Shown: in pieces, positions 1,691-38,083 of the stretch
Layout: each line of letters begins with the position of its first letter
Position numbering within the stretch: the stretch's first letter is position 1
Virus genome (UHGV): UHGV-0235457
Source of the DNA: a virus
Direction: 5' to 3' (one strand)
DNA length: 38,103 nt
Notes under the pieces: generated by a model
The model's input: the letters and a program-made list of their open reading frames with translations, nothing else
Database searches by the model: none
What the model was told of the DNA's origin: nothing
Made by a program: the position numbers and the translations under genes

Positions 1691-2800
1691 TCACTCTGTT
1701 TCCGCTATCCATTCCGGGATTTTTGCCTCAAGCTCAAGCTGCGTGGTAAAGCCGCTGTTATCAATGGTGTGCTCGGCTTTTGCAATAATCCAGTCCTGAT
1801 TATCAATCTCGCTTTTAAATCCTGTTACCGTGCCATGCATTTCGGGGTAGAGTTCTGCTCGTCCACGTGCCAGCGTGATGGAGAATGATGCGGCTCCGCG
1901 TTGTAGTTGTTGCCACTTTGCCGCCGCTGCGCGTCTTGCTGCCTGCTCGTTCTGATAAGTCTTGCGTAACACAAACACATTGCCTTCCGCGCCTTCCATA
2001 TAATCACCTTCACGGCTGCTGCTTTTCTCTTTTTTCGGTTTTGGCGGTTTGCGGCGTTTCACGCTGACTTTTTTCTTTTTCCCGTAATTAAGATCAAGCC
2101 AGTAAGCGCGTACCCCCGTATACGCCTCGCGGTCAGCAATGCGGAACTGATGGCGATCGCCGCTACTGCGTGTGATGGCGAACGATGGCAACGGCTGGCC
2201 CTGTGCGTTCACGCCACCGCCGGGCATGATGAATAACAGATTACCGCTTTTTACCGTGGTGATTGCGCCCAGCATTTCCGCCATGCGCGTAAGGAAGGAC
2301 ATGTCACTTTCTTCGGTCTGGTCGGCGTGGTCGATTTCGATATCCATCAGCATTTCGCTGATTTGCGGTTTCAGACCGTACCGATGAGCGATGGCGGATA
2401 CCACACGCTCAACGGTCACATCATGCCAGGACACCTCACGTTTAACGTTAAATTCATCCCGAAAATCTGCGCTTCTGGCTGAAACAGTCAGCCTGTCCGG
2501 CGGTCCTTCGTGAGCGATTTCATCAACAATGTAAGTGCCTTTTTCTGTCAGCGGTTCTCCTTTCCAGCCAATGAGAACCGTCAGGCGCGCGCCCCGTGGC
2601 GGTAGCTGCAACTGACCATCCGCATCATCCAGCGTGATGGTGAGCTGGTCCGCCTCAAATCCCCGGTTGTCGGTCAGCGACAGGCTCATCAGGCGCTCTG
2701 CCACGCCGGACAGCGTTTTACCCTCCGCGAGAATATCAAAATCCGGCATTTTCACGGGGTCTGTGCCCTGACTGAGCAATTGCATGGTGGTGTCGGTCAT
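1691..2800 (-). CDS. Phage late control gene D tail protein (P2 gpD-like)
   Basis: ORF 1691-2932; N-terminal 44 codons are low-complexity, so start set at ATG 2800 preceded by GGGAGGG; C-terminal region resembles gpD family as recalled. Confidence 0.8.
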   Translation of the reverse strand: MTDTTMQLLSQGTDPVKMPDFDILAEGKTLSGVAERLMSLSLTDNRGFEADQLTITLDDADGQLQLPPRGARLTVLIGWKGEPLTEKGTYIVDEIAHEGPPDRLTVSARSADFRDEFNVKREVSWHDVTVERVVSAIAHRYGLKPQISEMLMDIEIDHADQTEESDMSFLTRMAEMLGAITTVKSGNLLFIMPGGGVNAQGQPLPSFAITRSSGDRHQFRIADREAYTGVRAYWLDLNYGKKKKVSVKRRKPPKPKKEKSSSREGDYMEGAEGNVFVLRKTYQNEQAARRAAAAKWQQLQRGAASFSITLARGRAELYPEMHGTVTGFKSEIDNQDWIIAKAEHTIDNSGFTTQLELEAKIPEWIAETE

Positions 2801-2957
2801 CTGTTCCCTCCCTGTGCGGCATGGTCGCATGTGCGTGCGGAGTGGGTTACTGCTTTTTGTTGTCGCCGTGGCGGGAGAATAGCGCAGGGGTGAGATTACG
2901 CGCGTGGTGGGTGATGATTGTTGCTGAATCATTTAACGGATACAAGGGGCTGAAGCT
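2801..2957. promoter_or_regulatory. Divergent intergenic region between D and the sheath gene; presumed late promoters
   Basis: 157 bp non-coding between divergent starts; no promoter elements identified with confidence. Confidence 0.3.
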
Positions 2958-4142
2958 ATGAGTGAAACTCGTTTTCATGGTGCCCGTGTTACGGAAAGTA
3001 CCGACCTGGTAACAGCGATTAATGATGTTGATTCCAGTGTTATCGGTATCGTGGCAACGGCGGATGATGCGGATGCGGAGCTGTTCCCGCTGAACAAGCC
3101 CACACTGCTGACCCGCGTCAATGACGTGCTGGGAAAATGCGGAACAACGGGGACGCTTTATCGTGCGCTTAAGGCCATCGCAGACCAGGTGAGCACAAAG
3201 GTGATCGTCGTTCGCGTGGCTGAACACAAAGAAGAAGACGGAAAAACGCAGGATCAACTGGTTATCGGTGGTTCTGAATCTGACGGCAGCTATACGGGGA
3301 TGTATGCGCTGCTTGTTGCAGAGCAGGATGAAAGCATCGGATACCGTCCGCGTATTCTGGCCGCGCCGGAGCTGGACACGGAGGCGGTAACAAAATCCCT
3401 GTGCGTGATTGCGGGTAAACTGCGCGCGTTTGTGTATGCCTCATGTCACGGCTGTAACACGATGGCTGAGGCGATGACCTACCGCCAGAAATTCAACGAA
3501 CGTGAGGTGATGCTCTTATGGCCGGACTTCATCGCCTACAACCCGAAAAGTGGCAAAAACGAAACGTTCCCCGCGCCTGCTTATGCGTGCGGCCTTCGTG
3601 CGTACATTGACCATGAGCAGGGATGGCACAAATCACTGTCCAACGTTCCGGTTAAAAATGTGCTGGGGATGTCGAGGCATGTGTTCTGGTCGTTGCAGGC
3701 CGAAGACAGTGATGCCAACAGCCTCAACAACAAAGAAATCACGACCATTATTCGTCGCAACGGGTTCCGCTTCTGGGGCAACCGCACACCGGAAACGAAC
3801 GCCTACATCTTTGAGGTGTACACCCGAACCGCACAGGTGCTGGCTGATTCAATTGCGGAAGCGCAGTTTGAAACCATCGACAGTCCACTGACGCCTGCGA
3901 ACGTGAAGGATGTTATCAGTGCCATCAGGGCAAAACTGGATTCACTGGTTACTGCCGGGAAACTGATTGGTGCGGAGTGCTGGTATGACGTGGTGGATAA
4001 CGGCACCACGAATTTACGTCAGGGGCGTGTGCGTATTCGCTACAAATATACGCCTGTTCCCCCGCTGGAAGACATGGAGCTTTACCAGTCGTTTACTGAT
4101 GAATTCTTTGGTCCCGCATTTGCGGTGCTGGGAGGTGCCTGA
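2958..4142 (+). CDS. Contractile tail sheath protein (P2 gpFI-like)
   Basis: 394 aa; DADAELFPLNKP and AIADQ motifs as recalled for P2 FI; AAGGGG RBS. Confidence 0.9.
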   Translation: MSETRFHGARVTESTDLVTAINDVDSSVIGIVATADDADAELFPLNKPTLLTRVNDVLGKCGTTGTLYRALKAIADQVSTKVIVVRVAEHKEEDGKTQDQLVIGGSESDGSYTGMYALLVAEQDESIGYRPRILAAPELDTEAVTKSLCVIAGKLRAFVYASCHGCNTMAEAMTYRQKFNEREVMLLWPDFIAYNPKSGKNETFPAPAYACGLRAYIDHEQGWHKSLSNVPVKNVLGMSRHVFWSLQAEDSDANSLNNKEITTIIRRNGFRFWGNRTPETNAYIFEVYTRTAQVLADSIAEAQFETIDSPLTPANVKDVISAIRAKLDSLVTAGKLIGAECWYDVVDNGTTNLRQGRVRIRYKYTPVPPLEDMELYQSFTDEFFGPAFAVLGGA

Positions 4143-4654
4143 TGGCTGTACCAAAACATCTTCGCTTTTTTACGCTGTTTGTGGATGGTGAAAACGAAGT
4201 GGGTAAAGTGACATCCGTCACGCCGCCCAAACTGACGCGCAAAACCGACAGCTATCGTGGTGGTGGCATGATGGGGGCAGTAAGTATTGATCTCGGTCTG
4301 GACGACTCCGCACTTGATGCGAGTTTTGTCATGGGGGGAGCTGTTCGTGCGCTGTTCCTTAAATATGGCGGCACGATTGACGGCACGCTGCTGCGTTTTG
4401 CGGGTGAATACTACACCGATGCAGAAAGCGATCTGTATGAAATCGAGATGCGCGGGCGTGTGACGGAAATTGATATGGGGGAAGCCAAACAGGGCGAAGC
4501 CACATCACACACTTACGCTGTCAAAAACACCTACTACAAGCTGAGCGTTAACGATCGCCCGCTGTGGGAAATCGACCTGTTGAACCACATCTACCGGAAG
4601 GACGGCAAGGACATTGTGCCTGACCGCATCCGTTCCGCGCTTGGGCTTGGCTGA
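4142..4654 (+). CDS. Tail tube protein (P2 gpFII-like)
   Basis: 170 aa; start overlaps sheath stop (TGATG); position after sheath. Confidence 0.85.
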   Translation: MAVPKHLRFFTLFVDGENEVGKVTSVTPPKLTRKTDSYRGGGMMGAVSIDLGLDDSALDASFVMGGAVRALFLKYGGTIDGTLLRFAGEYYTDAESDLYEIEMRGRVTEIDMGEAKQGEATSHTYAVKNTYYKLSVNDRPLWEIDLLNHIYRKDGKDIVPDRIRSALGLG

Positions 4655-4708
4655 TAAGTAATATGCAGGCGGCGCAGTGCGTTGCCTCTGACTGAAAGGA
4701 GTTTCCTG

Positions 4709-5074
4709 ATGAAAGAGACGAAAAACATCGATACCGAAAACACGGTAGTTGCTGACACTGTGAAAGAAACCAGTGAGCGTGGCGTAAAACTTACCCAACC
4801 AATTGAGCGAGGCGGCGAAAAAATCACGTATGTGGAGATCACCGGGGCTATTGAGCAGGCTGGATCTCTGCGAGATTTGTCGCTGTCTGATGTGCTGAAT
4901 CTGAAAGCGGAATCCATGTTTACGCTGCTGTCACGCGTGACATCACCGCGACTGGATGAAGTGACGATCAAAAAAATGGCATCCCGTGACTTTATTCAGT
5001 TATGTGTGGTTGCCGTAAATTTTTTGAGCGGTGCGGACTCTGGCGGGAAGAACGAACAGGCGACGGAAGCCTGA
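4709..5074 (+). CDS. Tail assembly chaperone (P2 gpE-like), zero-frame product
   Basis: ATG 4709 with AAAGGAG 8 nt upstream; lies between tube and tape-measure genes. Confidence 0.75.
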   Translation: MKETKNIDTENTVVADTVKETSERGVKLTQPIERGGEKITYVEITGAIEQAGSLRDLSLSDVLNLKAESMFTLLSRVTSPRLDEVTIKKMASRDFIQLCVVAVNFLSGADSGGKNEQATEA

Positions 5075-5238
5075 TCACGGTTGTGTGCTTTGAGTACATA
5101 GAAGACTTTGTGGCGGATATTGCCGCCATTTTTAACTGGTCGCCCGCCGAAATCTTCATGATGACGCCCGGCGAAGTGGTTAGCTGGCGTGAGCGGGCGG
5201 CACTTCGCAGCGGGAATGCAGACAATGAAGACTCTTGA
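4709..5238 (+). CDS. Tail assembly chaperone frameshift fusion product (gpE+E'-like); -1 shift at T_TTT_TTG 5020-5026
   Basis: Slippery heptamer in correct phase in the E frame; -1 frame stays open to 5238. Confidence 0.65.
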
Positions 5239-8032
5239 TATCCGGGTCGCTTTCAGCGCCGTTGACAGGCTGACCCGGCCTGCCGAAAACGCCCGCCGCC
5301 TGATGGGGCAGTTTGGTGACTCCATCCAGCGAACGCAGGGGGCGATCAAAAATCTCGAGCGTCAGGCGCGTTCATTTGAGCGCGCCCGCGACGCTGTCAG
5401 TAAAGCGGATGCGGGTATCGTGAAAGCACGACGCCAGCTTAACGCCCTTAATCAGTTACAACGCACGGGTACAGTGCTCAGCGAAAAACAACAAAAGCTG
5501 ATGCAGCAGTTAAGCACCCGGCTTGAACGCCTGAATGAATCGCGCACACGGGAAATTCAGAAAATGCGGGAACTTGGCGGAGAGCTGAAACGCCACGGCA
5601 TTTCCCTGACAGGCAGCGATAACACCATCCAGCAGGCCATCAGACGCACCGAACAGTACAACAACCAGCTTGAACGCGAACGGCAGGCGCTTGCGCGTGT
5701 AACGCGGGCGCGTGAGCGGTATTCGCGCGTGCAGGAAACAGCGGGAAAACTGAAAACAGGTGGTGCGCTGGCAATTGGTGCGGCAGCGGCTGGCGGCTAT
5801 GCTGCCGGGCGTTTTTTGCAGCCTGCGATCGGGTTCGGGAAAGAGATGTCCCGCGTTCAGGCACTGACGCGAATCGACAAAAACAGCCCGCAGTTTAAGG
5901 CGCTGCGTGAGCAGGCGTTAAAACTTGGCTCTGAAACGCAGTTCACCGCAGGCGATGCCGCCAGTGGGCAGGCATTTCTTGCAATGGCTGGCTTCACTCC
6001 GCAGGCCATTCAGGCTGCGCTTCCGGGCGTGCTGAGCATGGCAACGGCTGGCGGCATGGATCTCGGCGAGACGGCGGATATTGGCTCAAATATCCTGACG
6101 CAGTTCGGCCTTTCTGCTGACCAGATGGACCGGGTTGGCGACACGCTCACCGCAGCATTTACCCGTACCAACACTGACCTTCGCGCACTGGGCGAAACCA
6201 TGAAATATGCAGGTCCGGTGGCGGGTAAGCTGGGAATATCGCTGGAGCAGGCCGCAGCGATGGCGGGCGTGCTGGCGAATATGGGTATCAGGGGGAGTGA
6301 TGCCGGGACGGCAATGCGTGCCAGCCTGGCTCGTCTGGCATCACCGCCAAAGGCAGCAGCAGAGGCGCTGAAAGAGCTTGGTGTGGCAGTCTCTGACGCG
6401 AACGGCAAAATGCGCCCGATGGAGGATGTGCTGGCCGACCTTTATAAAGCCACCCGCAAATACGGGGAAGTTGACCGGGTATCGTTCTTTAAGGACATTG
6501 CCGGAGAAGAGGCTTTCACATCGTTTATGGCGCTCGTTGATGCAGCGGGTGACGGTTCCTTACCTAAACTGAGAAAAGAACTTGAAGGTGCGCGCGGTGA
6601 GGCTGAACGCACAGCAAAGGTTATGGCCAACAACCTTGACGGCGATCTGAAATCACTCGGCAGTGCATGGGAAGGGTTGCGCATCCGCATTGCAGATCTG
6701 ATTGACGGTCCGCTGCGTTCTGTCACGCAGTGGCTCACGCGGGTGGTATCAAGGGTGACGGCGCTGGCGCAGGCCCATCCAACACTGACGCGCCAGCTAC
6801 TGATAGCAGGCGGTGCGTTGCTGGCAATGACTGCAACGGTTGGCTCGTTGTCGCTGGCTATTGGTGTGCTTGCTGGCCCGCTGGCAAAACTGCGTCTTGG
6901 TTTTTCTCTCCTGACCGGATCAATGAATGCTGTCAGGGTCCTGCCAGCACTATGGGGAATGGTGACGGGTTCCGTTTCTTTGCTGGGAGGTGCTATCGGG
7001 GCGCTGTTCAGTCCGGTTGGTCTTATCGTGGCTGCGCTTGCCGGAGCTGCCGTTCTTATCTGGAAATACTGGGATCCCATCAGGGCATTTTTTGCCGGGG
7101 TGTTCAGTGGGATTATGGAGCGGCTGGCCCCGTTGCGTGAAACCTTTGAACGGTTTGGCCCTGTTTTTGACGCAATCGGAAGCGGGATCAGCCAGGTGTT
7201 TAACTGGTTTAAATCGCTGCTGTCACCGATGGAGTCCAGCAAGGAAACGTTGGATAAATGTACCAGTGCTGGCGAGATATTCGGTAACGTTCTTGGTGGC
7301 GCGTTACAGCTTGTTCTGACGCCTGCAAAAATGTTGCTGGATACGCTGGCGTGGATACTTGAAAAACTCGGTGTTCTTCCGGATGAAGCGGAAAGGGCGA
7401 GAAAGAAAATCGAAGACGCACAGCGTGCGGCCATTCTTCAGGACAAGGTTGCCTTGCTTCAGGGGGACCTGGCGAAAATCAATCCGCCGAAGCCTGTAGA
7501 AAATGGCAATGGCACCGGAGGTGATAACCCCAAAGACAATAAACCGCTCACAGACAGCAATACCGGTACGCTGCGCAGACTCAGCAAAATTGCTGATAAC
7601 ACAGGTAAGCTGGTTGAGGAGACGAAAAAACGCATTGGCCCCGGCGATATTGTCTTTAAAAACCTGCCCCGAGCACTTGCTGTTCGTGGGGAGTGGCAGG
7701 AGCGGAAGATTGCGCAGGTCAGTAAGCCTGCCCCCGCAATTAATATCACACCCGTGGTCCCGGCTCCGCTGCCTCCGGCGCTGGTCCCTGTTGTTGCGGC
7801 CAGCTCCCGTCCGGTGGCGGAGGCCATACGATCTCCAGTGGCATCAGTTCCTGTAACTTCCCGTAACCGGGAGCCTGTTGCCTCCGGATTTGGTGGTGAA
7901 ATTCATGTTCATCTGCATAACGTTGTTACGCAGAATCCCCGCGAACTGGCGAAACTGGTCGGTGAAATGGTCAGGGCAGAAATGGAACGGCGCGCCCGTG
8001 CCGGGCGTGGCAGTTTTTACGATAAAGATTGA
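5216..8032 (+). CDS. Tail tape measure protein (P2 gpT-like); start ambiguous (GTG 5189, ATG 5216 or 5225)
   Basis: 947-codon ORF, coiled-coil N-terminus, hydrophobic glycine-rich central segment; follows chaperone genes. Confidence 0.85.
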   Translation: MQTMKTLDIRVAFSAVDRLTRPAENARRLMGQFGDSIQRTQGAIKNLERQARSFERARDAVSKADAGIVKARRQLNALNQLQRTGTVLSEKQQKLMQQLSTRLERLNESRTREIQKMRELGGELKRHGISLTGSDNTIQQAIRRTEQYNNQLERERQALARVTRARERYSRVQETAGKLKTGGALAIGAAAAGGYAAGRFLQPAIGFGKEMSRVQALTRIDKNSPQFKALREQALKLGSETQFTAGDAASGQAFLAMAGFTPQAIQAALPGVLSMATAGGMDLGETADIGSNILTQFGLSADQMDRVGDTLTAAFTRTNTDLRALGETMKYAGPVAGKLGISLEQAAAMAGVLANMGIRGSDAGTAMRASLARLASPPKAAAEALKELGVAVSDANGKMRPMEDVLADLYKATRKYGEVDRVSFFKDIAGEEAFTSFMALVDAAGDGSLPKLRKELEGARGEAERTAKVMANNLDGDLKSLGSAWEGLRIRIADLIDGPLRSVTQWLTRVVSRVTALAQAHPTLTRQLLIAGGALLAMTATVGSLSLAIGVLAGPLAKLRLGFSLLTGSMNAVRVLPALWGMVTGSVSLLGGAIGALFSPVGLIVAALAGAAVLIWKYWDPIRAFFAGVFSGIMERLAPLRETFERFGPVFDAIGSGISQVFNWFKSLLSPMESSKETLDKCTSAGEIFGNVLGGALQLVLTPAKMLLDTLAWILEKLGVLPDEAERARKKIEDAQRAAILQDKVALLQGDLAKINPPKPVENGNGTGGDNPKDNKPLTDSNTGTLRRLSKIADNTGKLVEETKKRIGPGDIVFKNLPRALAVRGEWQERKIAQVSKPAPAINITPVVPAPLPPALVPVVAASSRPVAEAIRSPVASVPVTSRNREPVASGFGGEIHVHLHNVVTQNPRELAKLVGEMVRAEMERRARAGRGSFYDKD

Positions 8033-8038
8033 GGAGTC

Positions 8039-8533
8039 ATGGCCATGATGATGATCTACGGCATGTTTGTTTTTGAGCTGCGCACGCTGCCGCATCAGCA
8101 GTTACAGCAAAACAAAAGCTGGCGGCATGTGAAAAATGAACGCGTTAACCGTTCAGCAAGCTGGCAGTATATCGGTGCAGGTGATGATCGCATCGTTCTT
8201 TCTGGTGTGCTTTATCCTGAAATTACAGGTGGCGAAGTGTCGCTGTCGCTGCTGACCACGCAGGCGTATACAGGACGACCCTGGCCTCTGATTGATGGCG
8301 TCGGGCAGATTTACGGCATGTATGTCCTGACCGGAACGAATACGACCCGTTCCGAGTTTGATCGCTACGGTAAGGCGAAAAAGATAGAATTTTCACTGAC
8401 CCTTGAACGCTGTGATGAGGATTTGCGGGAGCGCCTGCAATCCTCATCGTTCAGCGATATGCTGTCCGGCTTCAAAGATAAGGTGACATCATCTCTTAAC
8501 AGCGCGGCCAGTTCAGTTAAAGGGCTGTTCTGA
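8039..8533 (+). CDS. Tail protein gpU-like
   Basis: 164 aa; MMMIYGMFVFELRTLP start resembles P2 U as recalled; follows tape measure. Confidence 0.8.
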   Translation: MAMMMIYGMFVFELRTLPHQQLQQNKSWRHVKNERVNRSASWQYIGAGDDRIVLSGVLYPEITGGEVSLSLLTTQAYTGRPWPLIDGVGQIYGMYVLTGTNTTRSEFDRYGKAKKIEFSLTLERCDEDLRERLQSSSFSDMLSGFKDKVTSSLNSAASSVKGLF

Positions 8534-8544
8534 TTTAACACAAA

Positions 8545-8580
8545 AACCGCTAATGGTCAGATTAGCGGTTATTTTGTTTT
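8545..8580. terminator. Bidirectional rho-independent terminator between convergent U and invertase genes
   Basis: ACCGCTAAT-GGTCAG-ATTAGCGGT hairpin; T-rich run on both sides; the plus-strand T-tract overlaps the last invertase codons. Confidence 0.55.
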
Positions 8581-9156
8581 CTGACTCTTCTCTATTGTTC
8601 CGCTTGATTCTCCTGCGGGGTGGTAACGATAAATCGTCGATGTACCAATGCCGTAAATTATTGCCAGTTGTTTTCTGTCGTGACCGTTTTTAATCAGCCT
8701 TGCTATTTGCTCATGCTGTTCTTTTGTCAGCTTCGGTCGACGTCCGCCTGTGCGCCCCCGTGCGCGCGCTGCCGCCAGTCCGGCCAGTGTACGTTCAACA
8801 ATTAATTCACGTTCCATTTCAGCCAGGGCACCCATCACGTGGAAGAAGAAACGCCCCATTGGAGAAGATGTATCTATGCTGTCGGTCAGACTGCGAAAAT
8901 TAATCCCTCGTTCCCGTAGTTCCCCGACGAGAGAAATCAGATGTTTCATGCTTCGCCCGAGGCGATCCAGTTTCCAGACAACCAGCGTGTCACCTTTTTG
9001 AAGGCGCTTTAAAGCGCGTTTTAATCCCGGTCGGTCTGTCTTTGTCCCGCTTAATTTATCTTCAAATATTTGTTCACATCCTGCACAAACAAGAGCGTTT
9101 CGTTGCAGGTCTGTATTCTGGTCATTTGTTGATACCCTTACATAGCCAATCAGCAC
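8569..9156 (-). CDS. Serine-recombinase DNA invertase (Gin/Hin/Cin/Pin family)
   Basis: LIGYVRVSTNDQ N-terminus with catalytic Ser, C-terminal HTH; likely GTG start at 9156 with GGGAGA RBS (ORF track begins at 9174). Confidence 0.9.
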   Translation of the reverse strand: MLIGYVRVSTNDQNTDLQRNALVCAGCEQIFEDKLSGTKTDRPGLKRALKRLQKGDTLVVWKLDRLGRSMKHLISLVGELRERGINFRSLTDSIDTSSPMGRFFFHVMGALAEMERELIVERTLAGLAAARARGRTGGRRPKLTKEQHEQIARLIKNGHDRKQLAIIYGIGTSTIYRYHPAGESSGTIEKSQKTK

Positions 9157-9210
9157 GCTGAATCTCCCGTCCAAAAGCGTAAATCATGCCATGCAGGTCA
9201 GAAACGGCCA

Positions 9211-9236
9211 TTATCTAAAACCTCGGTTTACAGGAA
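9211..9236. other. Invertase crossover site (gix/hix-like), invertase-proximal
   Basis: TTATCTAAAACCTCGGTTTACAGGAA; inverted copy at 12275-12300; close to the Mu gix sequence as I recall it. Confidence 0.8.
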
Positions 9237-10172
9237 ACGGTAAATCAGGCTTCTGGCGCATTACAGAAAAACCAGAACGGCGCAGATATTCCAGGAAAAG
9301 ATACCTTCACAAAAAATATTGGTGCATGTCGCGCTTTTCACAGTGCTATTAGTACAGGGGCAGGGAACTGGACAACGGCACAATTGATTGAATGGCTGGA
9401 TTCTCAAGGGGCATTCAATCACCCATACTGGATGTGCAAATGTTCATGGTCATACGGCAATAATAAAATTATTACCGATACTGGCTGTGGAACTATTCAT
9501 CTTGCAGGTTGCGTTATTGAGGTTATGGGTAATAAAGGTGCCATGACCATCCGTGTAACCACCCCGAGCACTTCCAGCGGTGGCGGAACTACTAATGCAC
9601 AATTTACTTATATAAACCACGGTGGAGATTATGCGCCAGGCTGGCGGCGTGACTACAGTACCAAAAATCAGCAGCCTGCATTTGCTTTAGGGCAGACAGG
9701 AAGCACTGTTGGAAATGACAAAGCTGTTGGATGGAACTCAAATAGCGGCGTTTATAATGCGACTATTAGTGGAGCGTCAACATTGATTCTTCACTTTAAT
9801 ATGAATGCGGGGAGTTGCCCGGCGGTTCAGTTCCGTGTGAATTATAAGAACGGCGGTATTTATTATCGTTCAGCGCGAGATGGTTATGGATTTGAGGCTG
9901 ACTGGTCAGAGTTTTATACCACAACCCGCAAACCCTCTGCGGGAGATGTTGGTGCATATACCAAAGCTGAATCGGATTCTCGCTATGTACGAGATATTCG
10001 CCTGGGCACTCGTGTTGTTCAGACCATGCAAAAAGGCGTGATGTATGAGAAATCAGGTCATGTAATTACAGGGCTTGGCATTGTCGGCGAAGTTGATGGC
10101 GATGATCCGGCAGTATTCAGACCAATACAAAAATACATTAATGGCACATGGTATAACGTGGCGCAGGTGTAA
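9222..10172 (+). CDS. Alternative tail-fibre C-terminal domain cassette, silent in this orientation
   Basis: Frame open from the crossover site; ...LGLQETVNQ... continues in phase with the H constant region after inversion; C-terminus [14 protein letters not shown] parallels the current fibre end. Confidence 0.75.
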   Translation, partial: LGLQETVNQASGALQKNQNGADIPGKDTFTKNIGACRAFHSAISTGAGNWTTAQLIEWLDSQGAFNHPYWMCKCSWSYGNNKIITDTGCGTIHLAGCVIEVMGNKGAMTIRVTTPSTSSGGGTTNAQFTYINHGGDYAPGWRRDYSTKNQQPAFALGQTGSTVGNDKAVGWNSNSGVYNATISGASTLILHFNMNAGSCPAVQFRVNYKNGGIYYRSARDGYGFEADWSEFYTTTRKPSAGDVGAYTKAESDSRYVRDIRLGTRVVQTMQKGVMYEKSGHVITGLGIVGEVDGDDPAVFRPIQKYINGTWYNVAQV

Positions 10173-10175
10173 CTT

Positions 10176-10709
10176 ATGCAGCATTTAAAAAACATTAAGT
10201 CAGGTAATCCAAAAACAAAAGAGCAATATCAGCTAGCAAAGAATTTTGATGTTATCTGGTTATGGTCAGAAGATGGAAAAAATTGGTATGAGGAATTAAA
10301 AAACTTTCAGGAAGATACAATAAAACTGGCTTACACAGTTGAGGGAATAATTGTTGCTATGGACAAGGATGTATCGGCAATTAATCCAGAAGGTTTAAGT
10401 GTCGTTGAGTTGCCTGATATTACAGCAAATCGCCGGGCTGATATTTCGGGTAAATGGATGTTCAAAGATGGCGTAGTGATAAAGCGAACTTATACCGAGG
10501 AGGAACAGAGGCAGCAGGCAGAGAATGAAAAGCAAAGCCTGTTGCAACTTGTCAGGGATAAAACCCAGCTATGGGGCTCACAGCTACGGCTGGGCATCAT
10601 TTCCGACGAGAATAAACAAAAATTAACCGAGTGGATGCTCTATGCGCAGAAAGTCGAATCTACAGACACCTCCAGCCTGCCAGTAACATTTCCCGAACAA
10701 CCTGAATGA
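10176..10709 (+). CDS. Tail fibre assembly chaperone, partner of the alternative cassette
   Basis: 177 aa; N-terminus [11 protein letters not shown] and central DITANRRAD motif parallel the paralog at 10738-11265. Confidence 0.8.
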
Positions 10710-10712
10710 GAC

Positions 10713-10737
10713 AAGGCCCGATAGCGGGCCTTAATTT
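10713..10737. terminator. Bidirectional terminator between the two convergent assembly-chaperone genes
   Basis: AAGGCCCG-ATAG-CGGGCCTT hairpin flanked by A/T runs. Confidence 0.55.
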
Positions 10738-11265
10738 TTATTCAGGCTTTTGTGGCCATTCAGGATTTGCCGTATCCACACGGCTGACCAGAACACTGTA
10801 GCGTTCCCATGCTTCCAGTCGTGTGCGTTCCTCGTCTGTTGCCATATTCAGCCTGACAGCGCGTTCCAGCGGCTGGATGACTGATTCAGCTTCGGAAAGC
10901 AATGCGGCCTTTTGTGATTCGGCTTGTTGTTGCTGTTCGTCTGCCGTATAAATCCGTTTAACCACAGCTCCATCCTTAAACATCCACTTTCCTGAATCAT
11001 CAGCGCGGCGGTTGGCTGTAATATCTGGAACCTCAACGACGCTAAAACCTTCAGGGTTAAGCGTGGAGGCATCTTTAGTGATGGCGACAATAATATTATT
11101 TGCATCGTAAACAATCTTTATTGTGTCTGGCTGAAAGTTTTTCACTTCCTCATACCAGTTTTTTCCGTCCTCAGAGTAAAGCCAGATAACTCCGTGTTTC
11201 TTTGTTAACTCATACTGTTCCAGTGTTTTAGCGTTACCCGCTTTTATGTTCTTTAAGTGCATCAT
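10738..11265 (-). CDS. Tail fibre assembly chaperone (P2 gpG-like), expressed orientation
   Basis: 175 aa directly downstream of the fibre gene. Confidence 0.85.
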
Positions 11266-11266
11266 A

Positions 11267-13564
11267 TTAAACGCTCGCTACATTATACCAGGTGCCATTT
11301 ATATACTTTTGAACGGGTCTGTAATAAACGCCCGCTATATTATCGGCAGAGTTGGCCCCTGTATCCTGAACATTAATACCAGACAATACATGACCTGACG
11401 GGCACTGGAAATTCCATGTTTGCCAGTTGTTCACTCCATAATATTGCTGTGAACCAAGTCGAACATCTTTCACATATCTGGAATCAAAATTGCCATAGTT
11501 GCCGGGAATAACTTGCGAGCCGCAAAGCCAGTTCCCGTTATTATCCATGTACGCCTGACCATCGGTACCATTGGCTGTCCTTGAGTTATTAATCATGTAG
11601 ATGCCAAATTGCTTATTCCCCAGTCCACCAATCATAAATTTGCGATCAGCGTGGTCCTGACGAAGTAATGCCTGCGCACCATCGGTGGATACCGCATTGC
11701 GTCCCAAAATAACATTCTGGTCACGCATATGAATCCACATGCCGGTACTACTGTTAATTGCAAAACGGTTTGCAAATATATCCCCTGTAACATCAAGACC
11801 ATGCCCCATGCTTATCCGACCAGTTCTAAGGTTAATCGTAAAGGGGCGTAATGGCCCTATATCACCATTTTCTCCCTCATTCTCTCGTGTAGGGATGATA
11901 TGCAGGCATTCTTCAGAACGGCGAAAAATGGCACCAAAAGATGAATTAAATATCCTCAGTGCATTGACTGTCGATATTTTTACTTCACTGCTGAAAAGGG
12001 CTTTAACAAGAACAGACAAAGCATCCCATTTAAGATTCATCAGGTCTTTTGTTGTGGTGCTTTGTTTGCTTCTCCATTTGAAATATTCATTGCCGTTGTC
12101 GCCTGTTTCAAACCACATGTATGAATCAGTGTCACCATCGGCATCATTTTTAAATCCAATCTTCGCCCAGTCAGTATTTCGAATCCAGGCAAGGATTGAG
12201 TCATTTTCAAAAGTAAGCCCACCGGACAAGGTATCGCCATTTTTTTGCACGGCGTTACCAGCCCTGTTTACCGTTTCCTGTAAACCGAGGTATTCGATAA
12301 CGGCAGCAACGGTCGATTTCGCAAGAATATCCCGCCCGACTTTTGTCAGGGTTGCCAGGCTGGCGACATCATTCCCCGTAAAATACGGAAACTTGTCTGC
12401 AGCAGTAGCAAGCCCGGCCAGCGCCGTCAGGGTGGCATCTTTCGGTTGCTTACCCGCAAGCGCGTTAGTCATGGTGGTCGCAAAATTCGGGTCGTTTCCC
12501 AGCGCCGCCGCTAACTCGTTCAGCGTATTCAGTGCGTCAGGTGACGAATCTACAAGGGCGGCAATCGCAGCCATAACGAAAGCCGTGCTTGCGATTTGGG
12601 TATTATTCGTTCCCTGTCGCGCAGTTGGCGTTGTTGGCGTTCCGGTCAACGCAGGACTGTTTAAGGGCGCTTTCTTGTTCGTTTCATCCATTACCGCCTT
12701 GACCGCTTTCGATGTCGCGGCCAGTGTTTCAGACGTGCTGTTGGTGGCACTACTGAGCTGGACTATCCCTTTTTGTGCCGTCGTGGCGTCCTGAGCGGTA
12801 TATTTTGCGTTAGCAAGGTCATACGCGGCCTTTACTGCTTTCGGCGTTGCAGCCTGCGTTTCAGACGTGCTGTTGGTTGCACTGCTGAGCTGGACTATCC
12901 CTTTTCGTGCCGTCGTGGCGTCCTGAGCGGTATATTTTCCGTTAGCCAGGTCATACGCGGCCTTAACCGCTTTCGGCGTTGCAGCCTGCGTTTCAGACAC
13001 GCTGTTAGTGGCGCTACTGAGTTGAACAAAGCCTTTTGCGTTCAGCGAGGCGTCCGGGTGACGTCGTGACTGTTCATGCTCTTTCAGTTTGTCATCCACG
13101 TAATCCACTGTGGCCATCACCATGGTGTTATCCACGGTAAGTGCCACGGTGGCAGTGCTGGATACGGTCAGAATGGTGCGAAATGTTTGTGCACGACCGG
13201 ACCCTTCGGCAACGGCTGGCTTGTAACTTTCGGCAGTATTGCCCACCGCGATTAAATCGCCGTGCTCATCAAATACACCAATTTCCCGGATCCAGAATCC
13301 GCCCGTTTCTGGAGGAATAACCAGCTCTGCAATAATGCGGTTCTGATGTGTTGCGTCCAGGATGACGCGATTAACAGTATGTCGCCACACCTCATGCACC
13401 AGACGGGTCTGCTTACTGTCTGGCGTGGGCAATGTACCGCCACCGTCGCCCACGGCCATATGAGTCAGGCGGACAGGCTTACCATCTGGCGCGGCTGCCT
13501 GAGCTAATTTTTTGGCACCCGTATCGGTGATAACGGTTTTAAATTTACGTGTTGTGGTACTCAT
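11267..13564 (-). CDS. Tail fibre protein (P2 gpH-like); constant N-terminal ~426 codons, variable C-terminus inside the invertible segment
   Basis: 765 aa; internal fibre repeats; crossover site at codons encoding [10 protein letters not shown]. Confidence 0.9.
12275..12300. other. Invertase crossover site (gix/hix-like) inside the fibre gene
   Basis: TTCCTGTAAACCGAGGTATTCGATAA, inverted relative to 9211-9236. Confidence 0.8.
12680..13030. repeat. Three tandem ~129-bp coding repeats in the fibre shaft (phage tail fibre repeat)
   Basis: Units encode [41 protein letters not shown]; near-identical DNA copies visible. Confidence 0.8.
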
Positions 13565-31613: not shown

Positions 31614-31790
31614 GGTGTGGCCTCTTTGCTCGGTGATAGAAATAACTCACCATCCAGAGTTGAGAATCTCGGGGTGGCGAGACGTACAGGGTTCTCAACA
31701 CCGGAGAGCAAAGAATCCGGCCCGACCGAAGTCGGCCCCGTACGCCCCGCCATAATTCTGACGCGAAAAAGACGTGGCAATACAGTACGC

Positions 31791-31816
31791 ACAAAAAAAC
31801 CGCTTGCGCGGTTATG
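31791..31816 (-). terminator. Rho-independent terminator-like hairpin within the early-region non-coding stretch
   Basis: AACCGCGCAAGCGGTT stem followed by T7 on the minus strand. Confidence 0.5.
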
Positions 31817-31935
31817 CGCTTTGCTCTGTATCGGGTTGAGAATCCCGGCACCCGTTTTATGAGGTGCAGCGGAAATGTAACCTGACCGATTGAGGCATGG
31901 CAAGCGGTTTTTTTGTGTGTGCATGTTCTGGTTTC

Positions 31936-34290: not shown

Positions 34291-34695
34291 ATGAAAAATG
34301 ATATTGGTCAGCGGTTGCGTGAGGAAAGGGAAAGATTGGGACTTAGTCAAGTTGCCATGAGCGACATTGGTGGAGTCAAAAAGCTAACTCAGCTTAGATA
34401 TGAGAAAGGAGATAGCTTTCCTGATGCTGCGTATTTGGCAGCGCTGTCTCGTTTTGGCCTTGATGTTCAGTATGTTGTGTTGGGAATTCACTCACCTGAA
34501 ACTTATAACGATGATGAGCAGGAGTTGATTACTCGCTTTCGAGCAGCTTCGTTAGATGTGAAAAACGCGGTGATTGGGGCTTTAAAAGGTGCGATCAGTG
34601 AAAAGGAAACTCAGCCATCAGGACGTGAGTTAAATATTTCTGGTGGTAATAACCGTATCGCTGGTCGTGACTATAACGAAACTAAGGGTAGGTGA
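34291..34695 (+). CDS. XRE-family HTH repressor (immunity repressor candidate)
   Basis: 134 aa; N-terminal HTH (LGLSQVAMSDIGGVKKLTQLRYEKG); divergent from early operon, upstream of integrase. Confidence 0.75.
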   Translation: MKNDIGQRLREERERLGLSQVAMSDIGGVKKLTQLRYEKGDSFPDAAYLAALSRFGLDVQYVVLGIHSPETYNDDEQELITRFRAASLDVKNAVIGALKGAISEKETQPSGRELNISGGNNRIAGRDYNETKGR

Positions 34696-36860: not shown

Positions 36861-36906
36861 CCTCGGCGTTCGCGCTGTGCGGGTTCAAGTCCCGCTCCGG
36901 GTACCA
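36861..36906 (+). tRNA. Duplicated 3' fragment of tRNA-Leu at the right junction (partial, not a complete gene)
   Basis: Same 46 nt as 1-46 but preceded by phage sequence with only patchy tRNA similarity. Confidence 0.6.
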
Positions 36907-36979
36907 TGGGAAAGATAAGAATAAAATCAAAGCAATAAGCAGTGTCGTGAAACCACCTTCGGGTGGTTTTTTTGTATTT
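36861..36979. repeat. Right att direct repeat
   Basis: Identical to 1-119; similarity to the tRNA extends 9 bp further left (TTTAAAATC at 36852-36860). Confidence 0.85.
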
Positions 36980-37036: not shown

Positions 37037-38083
37037 TCATTTTCTCTGGCCACCAACTACGGGCACTACTTTAACTTTTCGGTCATAGGCAGCTGTCTGT
37101 CGTGGGTTCTTATGCCCGGAAATTGCTTGCTTCTCTTCCAGGCTGCCTTCCAGATCAGAGATACCTTTTGCTTTCAGATCATGAAATGTGAAGTCTATTT
37201 GCAGATGAGGATATTTTTCCTGTGCTGCCGCTTTGACATCACGCCAACGAGAGTTAAAACCATCACGGGTATACTTGCCACCGGTAGTTTGATGAATCAC
37301 AAACAGGCTACTGATTCCCGTTTTTAATGGCAGAGAACGAGCCAGAGCTATCGCTTTCTGCAGACGAGGCGACCAGGCTTTGATTTGCTTAACGCCGGTT
37401 TTTCCCTGACGAATGTAGATCCCGGAATCGAACAGCTGGTCTTTCTGCAATGAAAGTACATCACTCTGTCTGGCCACGCATAAGTAGGCAATCTCCATTG
37501 CTACGCGAACAACATCAGGAGACACTTCATAAACGGCCTGATATTCTTCATCCGTAATATAGCGTTCGCGAGCTTTCTCTTTAAACTGTTTAACTCCCTG
37601 ACAAGGATTCCTCTGAACATAACCTCGTTCATAACCCCAACGGAATACCCGGGACATAAAGCTTTTTTCCCTGTTTGCCTGAGTTCGGCTTGATAAACCG
37701 CGTTGATCCATATAGCGCCGAATATGTTCAGGTTTGATTTTATCCGGGTCGATCTTCCCGAAGACAGGTAGAACTTTTCCGGAATATTTTGTGTAGTCTT
37801 TCCTGGTTTCGACTGCCAAATCCATAAAATCAGGGGAGGTCATGAATTGTTCCGTGAGCGCCTGAAAAGTATTTCTTTCTTTTTCGTCACCGACCGCTTT
37901 TTCATATGCCAGCCATACGGCTGATCGTGGCGCATCCAATGCGCACAGGCGTATCGCTTTGTTATCTTTATTCCTGAATTCGTAGGCCGCTTTGCCCTGG
38001 TAAACACGAGGCGGCATCCAGTTATCTGCTGGGTTCTTTCTCTTTCCGGCCATTAAATATTGCTCCAAAATCAGGTTCATCAT
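37037..38083 (-). CDS. Tyrosine recombinase integrase of a second integrative element
   Basis: 348 aa; HDLKAKG and AAYDR catalytic-region motifs; lies outside the right att repeat, 3' end facing the tRNA fragment. Confidence 0.8.
   Translation of the reverse strand: MMNLILEQYLMAGKRKNPADNWMPPRVYQGKAAYEFRNKDNKAIRLCALDAPRSAVWLAYEKAVGDEKERNTFQALTEQFMTSPDFMDLAVETRKDYTKYSGKVLPVFGKIDPDKIKPEHIRRYMDQRGLSSRTQANREKSFMSRVFRWGYERGYVQRNPCQGVKQFKEKARERYITDEEYQAVYEVSPDVVRVAMEIAYLCVARQSDVLSLQKDQLFDSGIYIRQGKTGVKQIKAWSPRLQKAIALARSLPLKTGISSLFVIHQTTGGKYTRDGFNSRWRDVKAAAQEKYPHLQIDFTFHDLKAKGISDLEGSLEEKQAISGHKNPRQTAAYDRKVKVVPVVGGQRK

Follow-up and report, generated by a model that had tools for sequence, protein, structure and literature searches.

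In a 38,103-nt stretch of viral DNA (UHGV-0235457, hereafter "the window" at its full length), we describe a tail-fibre locus which is very probably a site-specific inversion switch of the Gin/Cin/Pin type, operating on the tail-fibre gene of a complete P88-like Escherichia coli prophage. The initial annotation of this DNA had proposed a Mu G-segment-like invertible tail-fibre switch in a P2-type prophage. The switch is supported by the presence of gix-type sites, by a Gin orthologue, by the orthology of the fibre cassettes with those of Mu and by a naturally inverted relative. As for the carrier, it does belong to the P2 family but is more precisely termed P88-like, because its tail-gene order departs from that of P2.

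Crossover sites and invertase

The window was searched with the 26-bp gix sequence of Mu, which is found as an exact match, in inverted orientation, at both of the annotated "G-segment boundary" features of the Mu genome (NC_000929). At a threshold of up to 3 mismatches, two matches were obtained, where 0.00 were expected from 100 dinucleotide-preserving shuffles; a chance inverted repeat was rejected on these grounds. The first site, on the invertase side (9211-9236, + strand, TTATCTAAAACCTCGGTTTACAGGAA), has 1 mismatch to Mu gix and its central TC lies at 9223-9224. The second, within the fibre gene (12275-12300, - strand, TTATCGAATACCTCGGTTTACAGGAA), has 2 mismatches and its central TC lies at 12288-12287. 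Both are thus of the gix type. A 25-nt core, ACCTCGGTTTACAGGAAACGGTAAA, is identical between the two. The asymmetric TC dinucleotide at which crossover takes place is also the same in both, and the sites are therefore in true inverted orientation relative to it. A repeat finder reported a longer inverted repeat around them, of 65 nt and 78% identity (9207-9271 versus 12240-12304).

Two 26-bp sites in inverted orientation at these positions, about 3.06 kb apart, one inside the codons of the fibre gene and the other 55 bp upstream of the invertase, had been put forward in the initial annotation, and both direct reading of the sequence and the gix search bear them out. Their centre-to-centre spacing is 3064 bp, the fibre-side site encodes residues (V)IEYLGLQE of the 765-aa fibre, and the 55 bp on the other side are measured to the invertase GTG start codon at 9156. 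The number of differences between the two sites, given there as three, has to be corrected to two, at positions 6 and 9 of the outer half-site. Even with up to 8 of the 26 positions allowed to mismatch, the whole window yielded no additional crossover site, and a multi-site shufflon, as in the Min system or in enteropathogenic E. coli (EPEC), was rejected since only two sites are present.

The invertase gene (8569-9156, - strand) encodes a Gin-family serine DNA invertase of 195 aa with matches to Pfam Resolvase (1.3e-50) and HTH_7 (9.2e-14). Its open reading frame was called mechanically from a TTG at 9174, but homology places the start at GTG 9156, and Mu gin likewise begins with GTG. The protein, which starts MLIGYVRVS, gives a gapless alignment of 181 residues with Mu Gin at 86% identity, and its best matches in the PDB are the Gin structures 4m6f and 3uj3 (E ~1e-100). 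It has the architecture of a small serine recombinase, with an N-terminal catalytic domain and a C-terminal helix-turn-helix (HTH) domain. Ser9, the nucleophile in Gin (PMC3575834), is present in the catalytic domain, as seen in the alignment to Mu Gin. The assignment to the Gin/Hin family made in the initial annotation thus stands, as does its statement that the gene carries no inactivating lesion. NCBIfam returned no family-specific model for the invertase, just sub-threshold matches to other serine recombinases.

The resemblance to Gin is unevenly distributed along the protein. Only two residues of the catalytic domain (residues 1-120) differ from Mu Gin, K39/R and V120/I, and nearly all of the differences fall after residue 120. 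At the DNA level, there are no differences to Mu gin in nucleotides 1-100 and 3 in nucleotides 101-200, with steep divergence only after about nucleotide 300. Judged by its sequence, the invertase is a mosaic of a Gin-like catalytic domain and a diverged DNA-binding domain, the latter of which may be more Hin/Pin-like than Gin-like. There is a slim chance that such a mosaic enzyme, paired with an altered fibre-side site, changes the inversion rate or the orientation bias compared to Mu, or that it cross-acts on further segments of the Pin type within one E. coli genome.

Mu carries its Fis-dependent stimulating site inside the gene for the invertase (Kahmann et al. 1985, as cited in PMC3798978). 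From the DNA identity to Mu gin, we place a candidate Fis-dependent recombinational enhancer (sis) in the first 200 nucleotides of the invertase gene (8957-9156, - strand). All Fis-consensus-like matches of Mu gin 1-260 are kept unchanged in this gene. Also, three residues of Hin that are conserved in Fis-dependent invertases, Gln151, Arg154 and Leu155 (PMC3798978), have their equivalents here in Q150, R153 and L154. By analogy, inversion at this locus is expected to depend on Fis and on the enhancer.

Fibre cassettes within the segment

The fibre open reading frame of 765 aa extends from 11267 to 13564 on the - strand. Its constant N-terminal part (Sc; 12301-13564, - strand) is similar to P2 gpH, with an N-terminal tail-collar domain of the P2 type (Pfam Phage_tail_fib, 1.5e-55) and matches to three Phage_fiber_2 repeats, and shows no meaningful identity to Mu Sc. 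To this part is presently fused a C-terminal cassette of the Sv type (11267-12274, - strand; Pfam Gp34_trimer), next to which lies a U-type tail-fibre assembly chaperone of 175 aa in the predicted expressed orientation (10738-11265, - strand; Pfam Caudo_TAP, 8.7e-38). Convergent with this pair are a silent C-terminal cassette of the Sv' type (9237-10172, + strand; Pfam gp37_C) and a silent chaperone of the U' type, of 177 aa (10176-10709, + strand; Pfam Caudo_TAP, 9.6e-34). The four are orthologous one-for-one to those of Mu, with identities of 72% for Sv, 91% for U, 76% for Sv' and 85% for U'. NCBIfam gave nothing for the fibre parts.

The silent cassette has neither a start codon nor a promoter of its own, and its frame is shut on the upstream side by an in-frame TAA (9216-9218) carried in the outer half of the invertase-side site. 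From 9222 to 10172 (+ strand) the frame is open over 316 codons, in the register of the fibre across the shared LGLQETV codons. When a crossover at the central TC was simulated, an uninterrupted fibre of 741 aa was obtained, consisting of the constant part and Sv' and followed by U'. Thus, the fibre is fused in frame in both orientations, with 765 aa as found and 741 aa once inverted. The two tips share just 31% identity, and both C-termini finish in a common motif ending in (Q/S)V. The description of this segment in the initial annotation, i.e. two convergent cassettes each made of a fibre C-terminal domain and a chaperone, a silent cassette that stays in frame after inversion, and diverged C-terminal domains with the same ending, is upheld by the open reading frames, the Pfam matches and the orthology to Mu together with the simulated fibre.

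Each tip has its closest counterparts in different phages. The active tip, Sv, is 94% identical to that of Shigella phage SfMu, 84% to that of P88 and 80% to the C-terminus of P2 gpH, while the silent tip, Sv', is 99% identical to that of the Yersinia Mu-like phage vB_YpM_6, 80% to P1 Sv' and 75% to that of P88. The phages that match the two tips were isolated on different hosts, Shigella for SfMu and Yersinia for vB_YpM_6.

Two hairpins were also detected. One is GC-rich, lies between the convergent cassettes (10713-10732; 8 pairs of which 6 are GC, with a T-rich tail in the terminator scan) and probably serves as a terminator in the middle of the segment. The other is a bidirectional terminator-like hairpin located between the invertase gene and a convergent gpU-like gene (8039-8533, + strand), where the scan was positive on both strands of an inverted repeat (8545-8570). 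Within the constant fibre part, the Phage_fiber_2 repeats correspond to three tandem repeats of 132 bp (44 aa) with 75-90% identity (12696-13091, - strand); their copy number may vary among relatives, which would alter the length of the shaft.

Orientation among relatives and alternative readings

A total of 5,426 complete E. coli genomes were searched for a 701-nt junction of the simulated inverted form and for its as-is counterpart. Of these, 124 have the inverted junction at full length (best identity 99.1%) and 355 have the as-is junction (best identity 99.6%). One strain, E. coli GPT24-02 (NZ_OZ282453.1), contains both junction types, at two different but related prophages. These junctions, at 1216920-1217620 and 1602072-1602772, are each 99.1% identical to the window and in opposite states. 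We compared the GPT24-02 region bearing the inverted-type junction (L003) with the window by local BLAST. It is colinear with the simulated inverted window over its full length. Against the as-is window, by contrast, the flanks are ~97% identical but colinearity stops at query position 5338 and resumes at 8352, with the interior reversed; both breaks fall at the crossover sites, which are at 5301-5326 and 8365-8390 in these query coordinates. The annotated gene order of L003 is fibre, chaperone, convergent chaperone, an "incomplete" fibre fragment, recombinase, gpU and tape measure. Together, these results are direct evidence that prophages of the window's family have inverted at these two sites. 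Inversion within P2-like E. coli prophages has also been detected by sequencing (PMC4272514).

How the switch would operate can be laid out from characterised systems, and we infer its Fis and enhancer dependence, its chemistry and its host-range consequence by analogy with Mu, P1 and Hin, the chemistry and the Fis-synapse steps being those of Gin and Hin (PMC3575834, PMC3798978). Dimers of the invertase would bind the two gix-type sites and, on supercoiled DNA, form a synapse with the enhancer, itself bound by Fis and located in the 5' region of the invertase's own gene. Ser9 would then cleave both sites at the central TC, one pair of subunits would rotate by 180 degrees and the ends would be religated, a strand exchange which would flip the 3.06-kb segment. 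Transcription and translation are predicted to enter from outside, i.e. from the late baseplate/fibre operon and the constant fibre part (12301-13564), so that only the cassette joined to the constant part would be expressed. In the present orientation, Sv and U would be made, with a fibre of 765 aa; in the inverted one, Sv' and U' would be made, with a fibre of 741 aa. A lysogenic culture would thereby release mixed virions with two receptor specificities, a form of host-range bet-hedging.

Several observations weigh against such a functional switch at this locus. The fibre-side site has two outer half-site substitutions relative to Mu gix. The C-terminal HTH domain and tail of the invertase, encoded in the 3' part of the gene (8569-8860, - strand), have diverged from Gin, and because this is the DNA-binding part, the efficiency of inversion could differ. 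A sigma-70 consensus scan gave no convincing promoter for the invertase near 9157-9260, and promoter-like sites were overall fewer than in shuffles. The enhancer was positioned by DNA identity to Mu gin. Finally, the evidence for inversion comes from the genomes of relatives rather than from the locus of this strain.

The altered fibre-side site, the diverged C-terminal domain and the missing consensus promoter would all fit a frozen relic, in which the architecture of a switch has been inherited but inversion in this prophage has become negligible. Decay of this kind does occur, as seen in phage phiSM, where the proximal site is degraded (4 mismatches) and the silent cassette truncated. In the window, however, the invertase is intact, as are the two sites, the two cassettes and their chaperones, and the silent frame is open throughout its 316 codons; moreover, the very variant of the fibre-side site found here occurs among relatives in both orientations. 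We therefore regard a relic as highly unlikely. Even less credible is that inversion mainly serves the lysogen, for instance through prophage proteins that block the adsorption of other phages, rather than the host range of the virion: PinQ/PinR inversion of cryptic-prophage DNA is reported to inhibit T2 adsorption (PMC12529663; bioRxiv 10.1101/2025.03.28.646004), but the prophage here is not cryptic, having a full P2-family gene set and intact attachment repeats, the inverted DNA encodes just fibre tips and chaperones fused in frame to a structural fibre, and PADLOC, run on ten non-switch open reading frames of the prophage, returned no significant defence matches (two weak matches to RmrA, E ~3e-4, at 34291-34695).

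Related systems and prophage context

As an inversion switch of the tail fibre, the locus is of an already known kind: it is of the classical Mu G, P1 C and e14 P type, and its arrangement has already been annotated in P88-like phages. Mu, together with D108 and SfMu, has the same type of 26-bp site and the same layout, with the invertase outside the segment followed by site, Sv', U', U, Sv, site and Sc, and Mu DNA is ~85% identical to the window over the invertase gene and the entire segment. Apart from the diverged C-terminal HTH domain of the invertase, there are three differences. Mu is a transposing phage, whereas the carrier here is an integrating prophage of the P2 family; the receptor-binding tips are just 72-76% identical; and the constant part is Mu Sc in the one and P2 gpH-like in the other. 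The DNA homology to Mu, D108 and P1 extends no further than window position 12300, where the fibre-side site has its outer edge. Thus, the module made of invertase and segment appears to have been transplanted, at the crossover site, onto another fibre shaft. The C segment of P1/P7 with Cin and the P segment of e14 with Pin belong to the same family of invertible tail-fibre segments, with 85-88% DNA identity over the segment; their carrier replicons and constant fibre parts are unlike those of the window.

Four phages of the Peduoviridae, P88, Xuanwuvirus P884B11, phiSM and phage 503458, are of the same phage type as the window, with 89-97% DNA identity over the aligned parts. They share its gene order, which runs tape measure, gpU, invertase, two fibre C-termini, two chaperones, fibre, gpI and gpJ, and a DNA invertase, two fibre genes and two assembly genes are already annotated in them. 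P88 differs in its tips, as given above, and phiSM in the degenerate proximal site and truncated silent cassette that stand against intact copies in the window. The proximal site of phiSM (L001) is located at 2717-2742 and, since only ~780 bp (2663-3440) separate the invertase from the silent chaperone, its silent fibre cassette must be truncated; phiSM is probably locked in one orientation. The P2-like prophages of EPEC E2348/69 (Goldberg et al. 2014, PMC4272514), which we liken to the window from their description, undergo a two-state inversion, as sequencing experiments showed; one of their loci is a multi-site shufflon, in contrast to the two sites only of the window.

The element itself, by its gene content and flanks, is a complete prophage of the P88-like type (Xuanwuvirus, Peduoviridae), which takes up essentially the whole window and has integrated at a tRNA-Leu gene of E. 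coli. Its closest phages by DNA are Citrobacter phage phiSM (Xuanwuvirus, 90.9%) and Escherichia phage P88 (88.7%), followed by P884B11 and 503458. Pfam identified a P2-type set (Phage_P2_GpU, Tail_P2_I, Baseplate_J, Phage_cap_P2, Phage_GPA, Phage_GPD, Phage_tube FII and integrase), and the gene content comprises gpD, sheath, tube, tape measure, gpU, gpI, gpJ, capsid, terminase, portal, replication protein A and integrase. The block encoding sheath, tube, tape measure and gpU (2958-8533, + strand) opposes both gpD (1691-2932, - strand) and the baseplate/fibre operon (- strand), an order that is that of P88/Xuanwuvirus and not that of P2. This opposition of strands places both the invertase and the invertible segment at a junction of convergent genes.

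The flanking DNA is E. coli chromosome and matches thousands of genomes at 99-100% identity; the prophage is inserted at the 3' end of the tRNA-Leu gene within the glyW-cysT-leuZ cluster. The attachment sites form an exact direct repeat of 119 bp (1-119 and 36861-36979), made of the last 46 nt of tRNA-Leu and 73 bp downstream; the left copy may reach beyond the start of the window. ARAGORN found no tRNA in the window, because the window start cuts the tRNA-Leu gene and leaves only its 3' part. Just outside the prophage is a second tyrosine integrase (37037-38083, - strand), with a DUF4224 gene beyond the end of the window. It belongs to a neighbouring element that many E. coli genomes carry at this tRNA-Leu locus, which points to tandem occupation of one integration hotspot.

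Two further regions of the prophage deserve mention. In its early region, two adjoining Rfam matches score above the gathering threshold, a C4 antisense RNA (31670-31757, - strand, 78.5 bits) and the Hfq-binding small RNA isrK (31793-31867, - strand, 63.1 bits), a pair that suggests a P1/P7-type antisense module for immunity or anti-repressor control in a P2-family phage. At the left end are a Hok/Gef-family toxin gene and a gene for an ogr/Delta-like zinc-finger late activator (~1058-1198 and ~1388-1648, respectively, both on the - strand), both called by comparison with a 99.7% identical, annotated locus of E. coli (L005).

Loci of this kind are common: at least 80% of the 5.6-kb region is found at ~90% identity or more in 55 complete E. 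coli genomes, and many genomes have several loci of the Pin type, with a median of 2 places and up to 12. Beyond correct annotation, the importance of the finding is slight. For such annotation, the "partial" or "N-terminally truncated" fibre gene next to this invertase is very probably the silent half of a two-state host-range switch and not a pseudogene, and two assemblies of this prophage that differ by a 3.06-kb inversion may both be correct. The locus also provides a clean example of modular exchange, in which a Mu-type invertase and G-segment module is found on a P2-type fibre shaft, joined to it at the crossover site.

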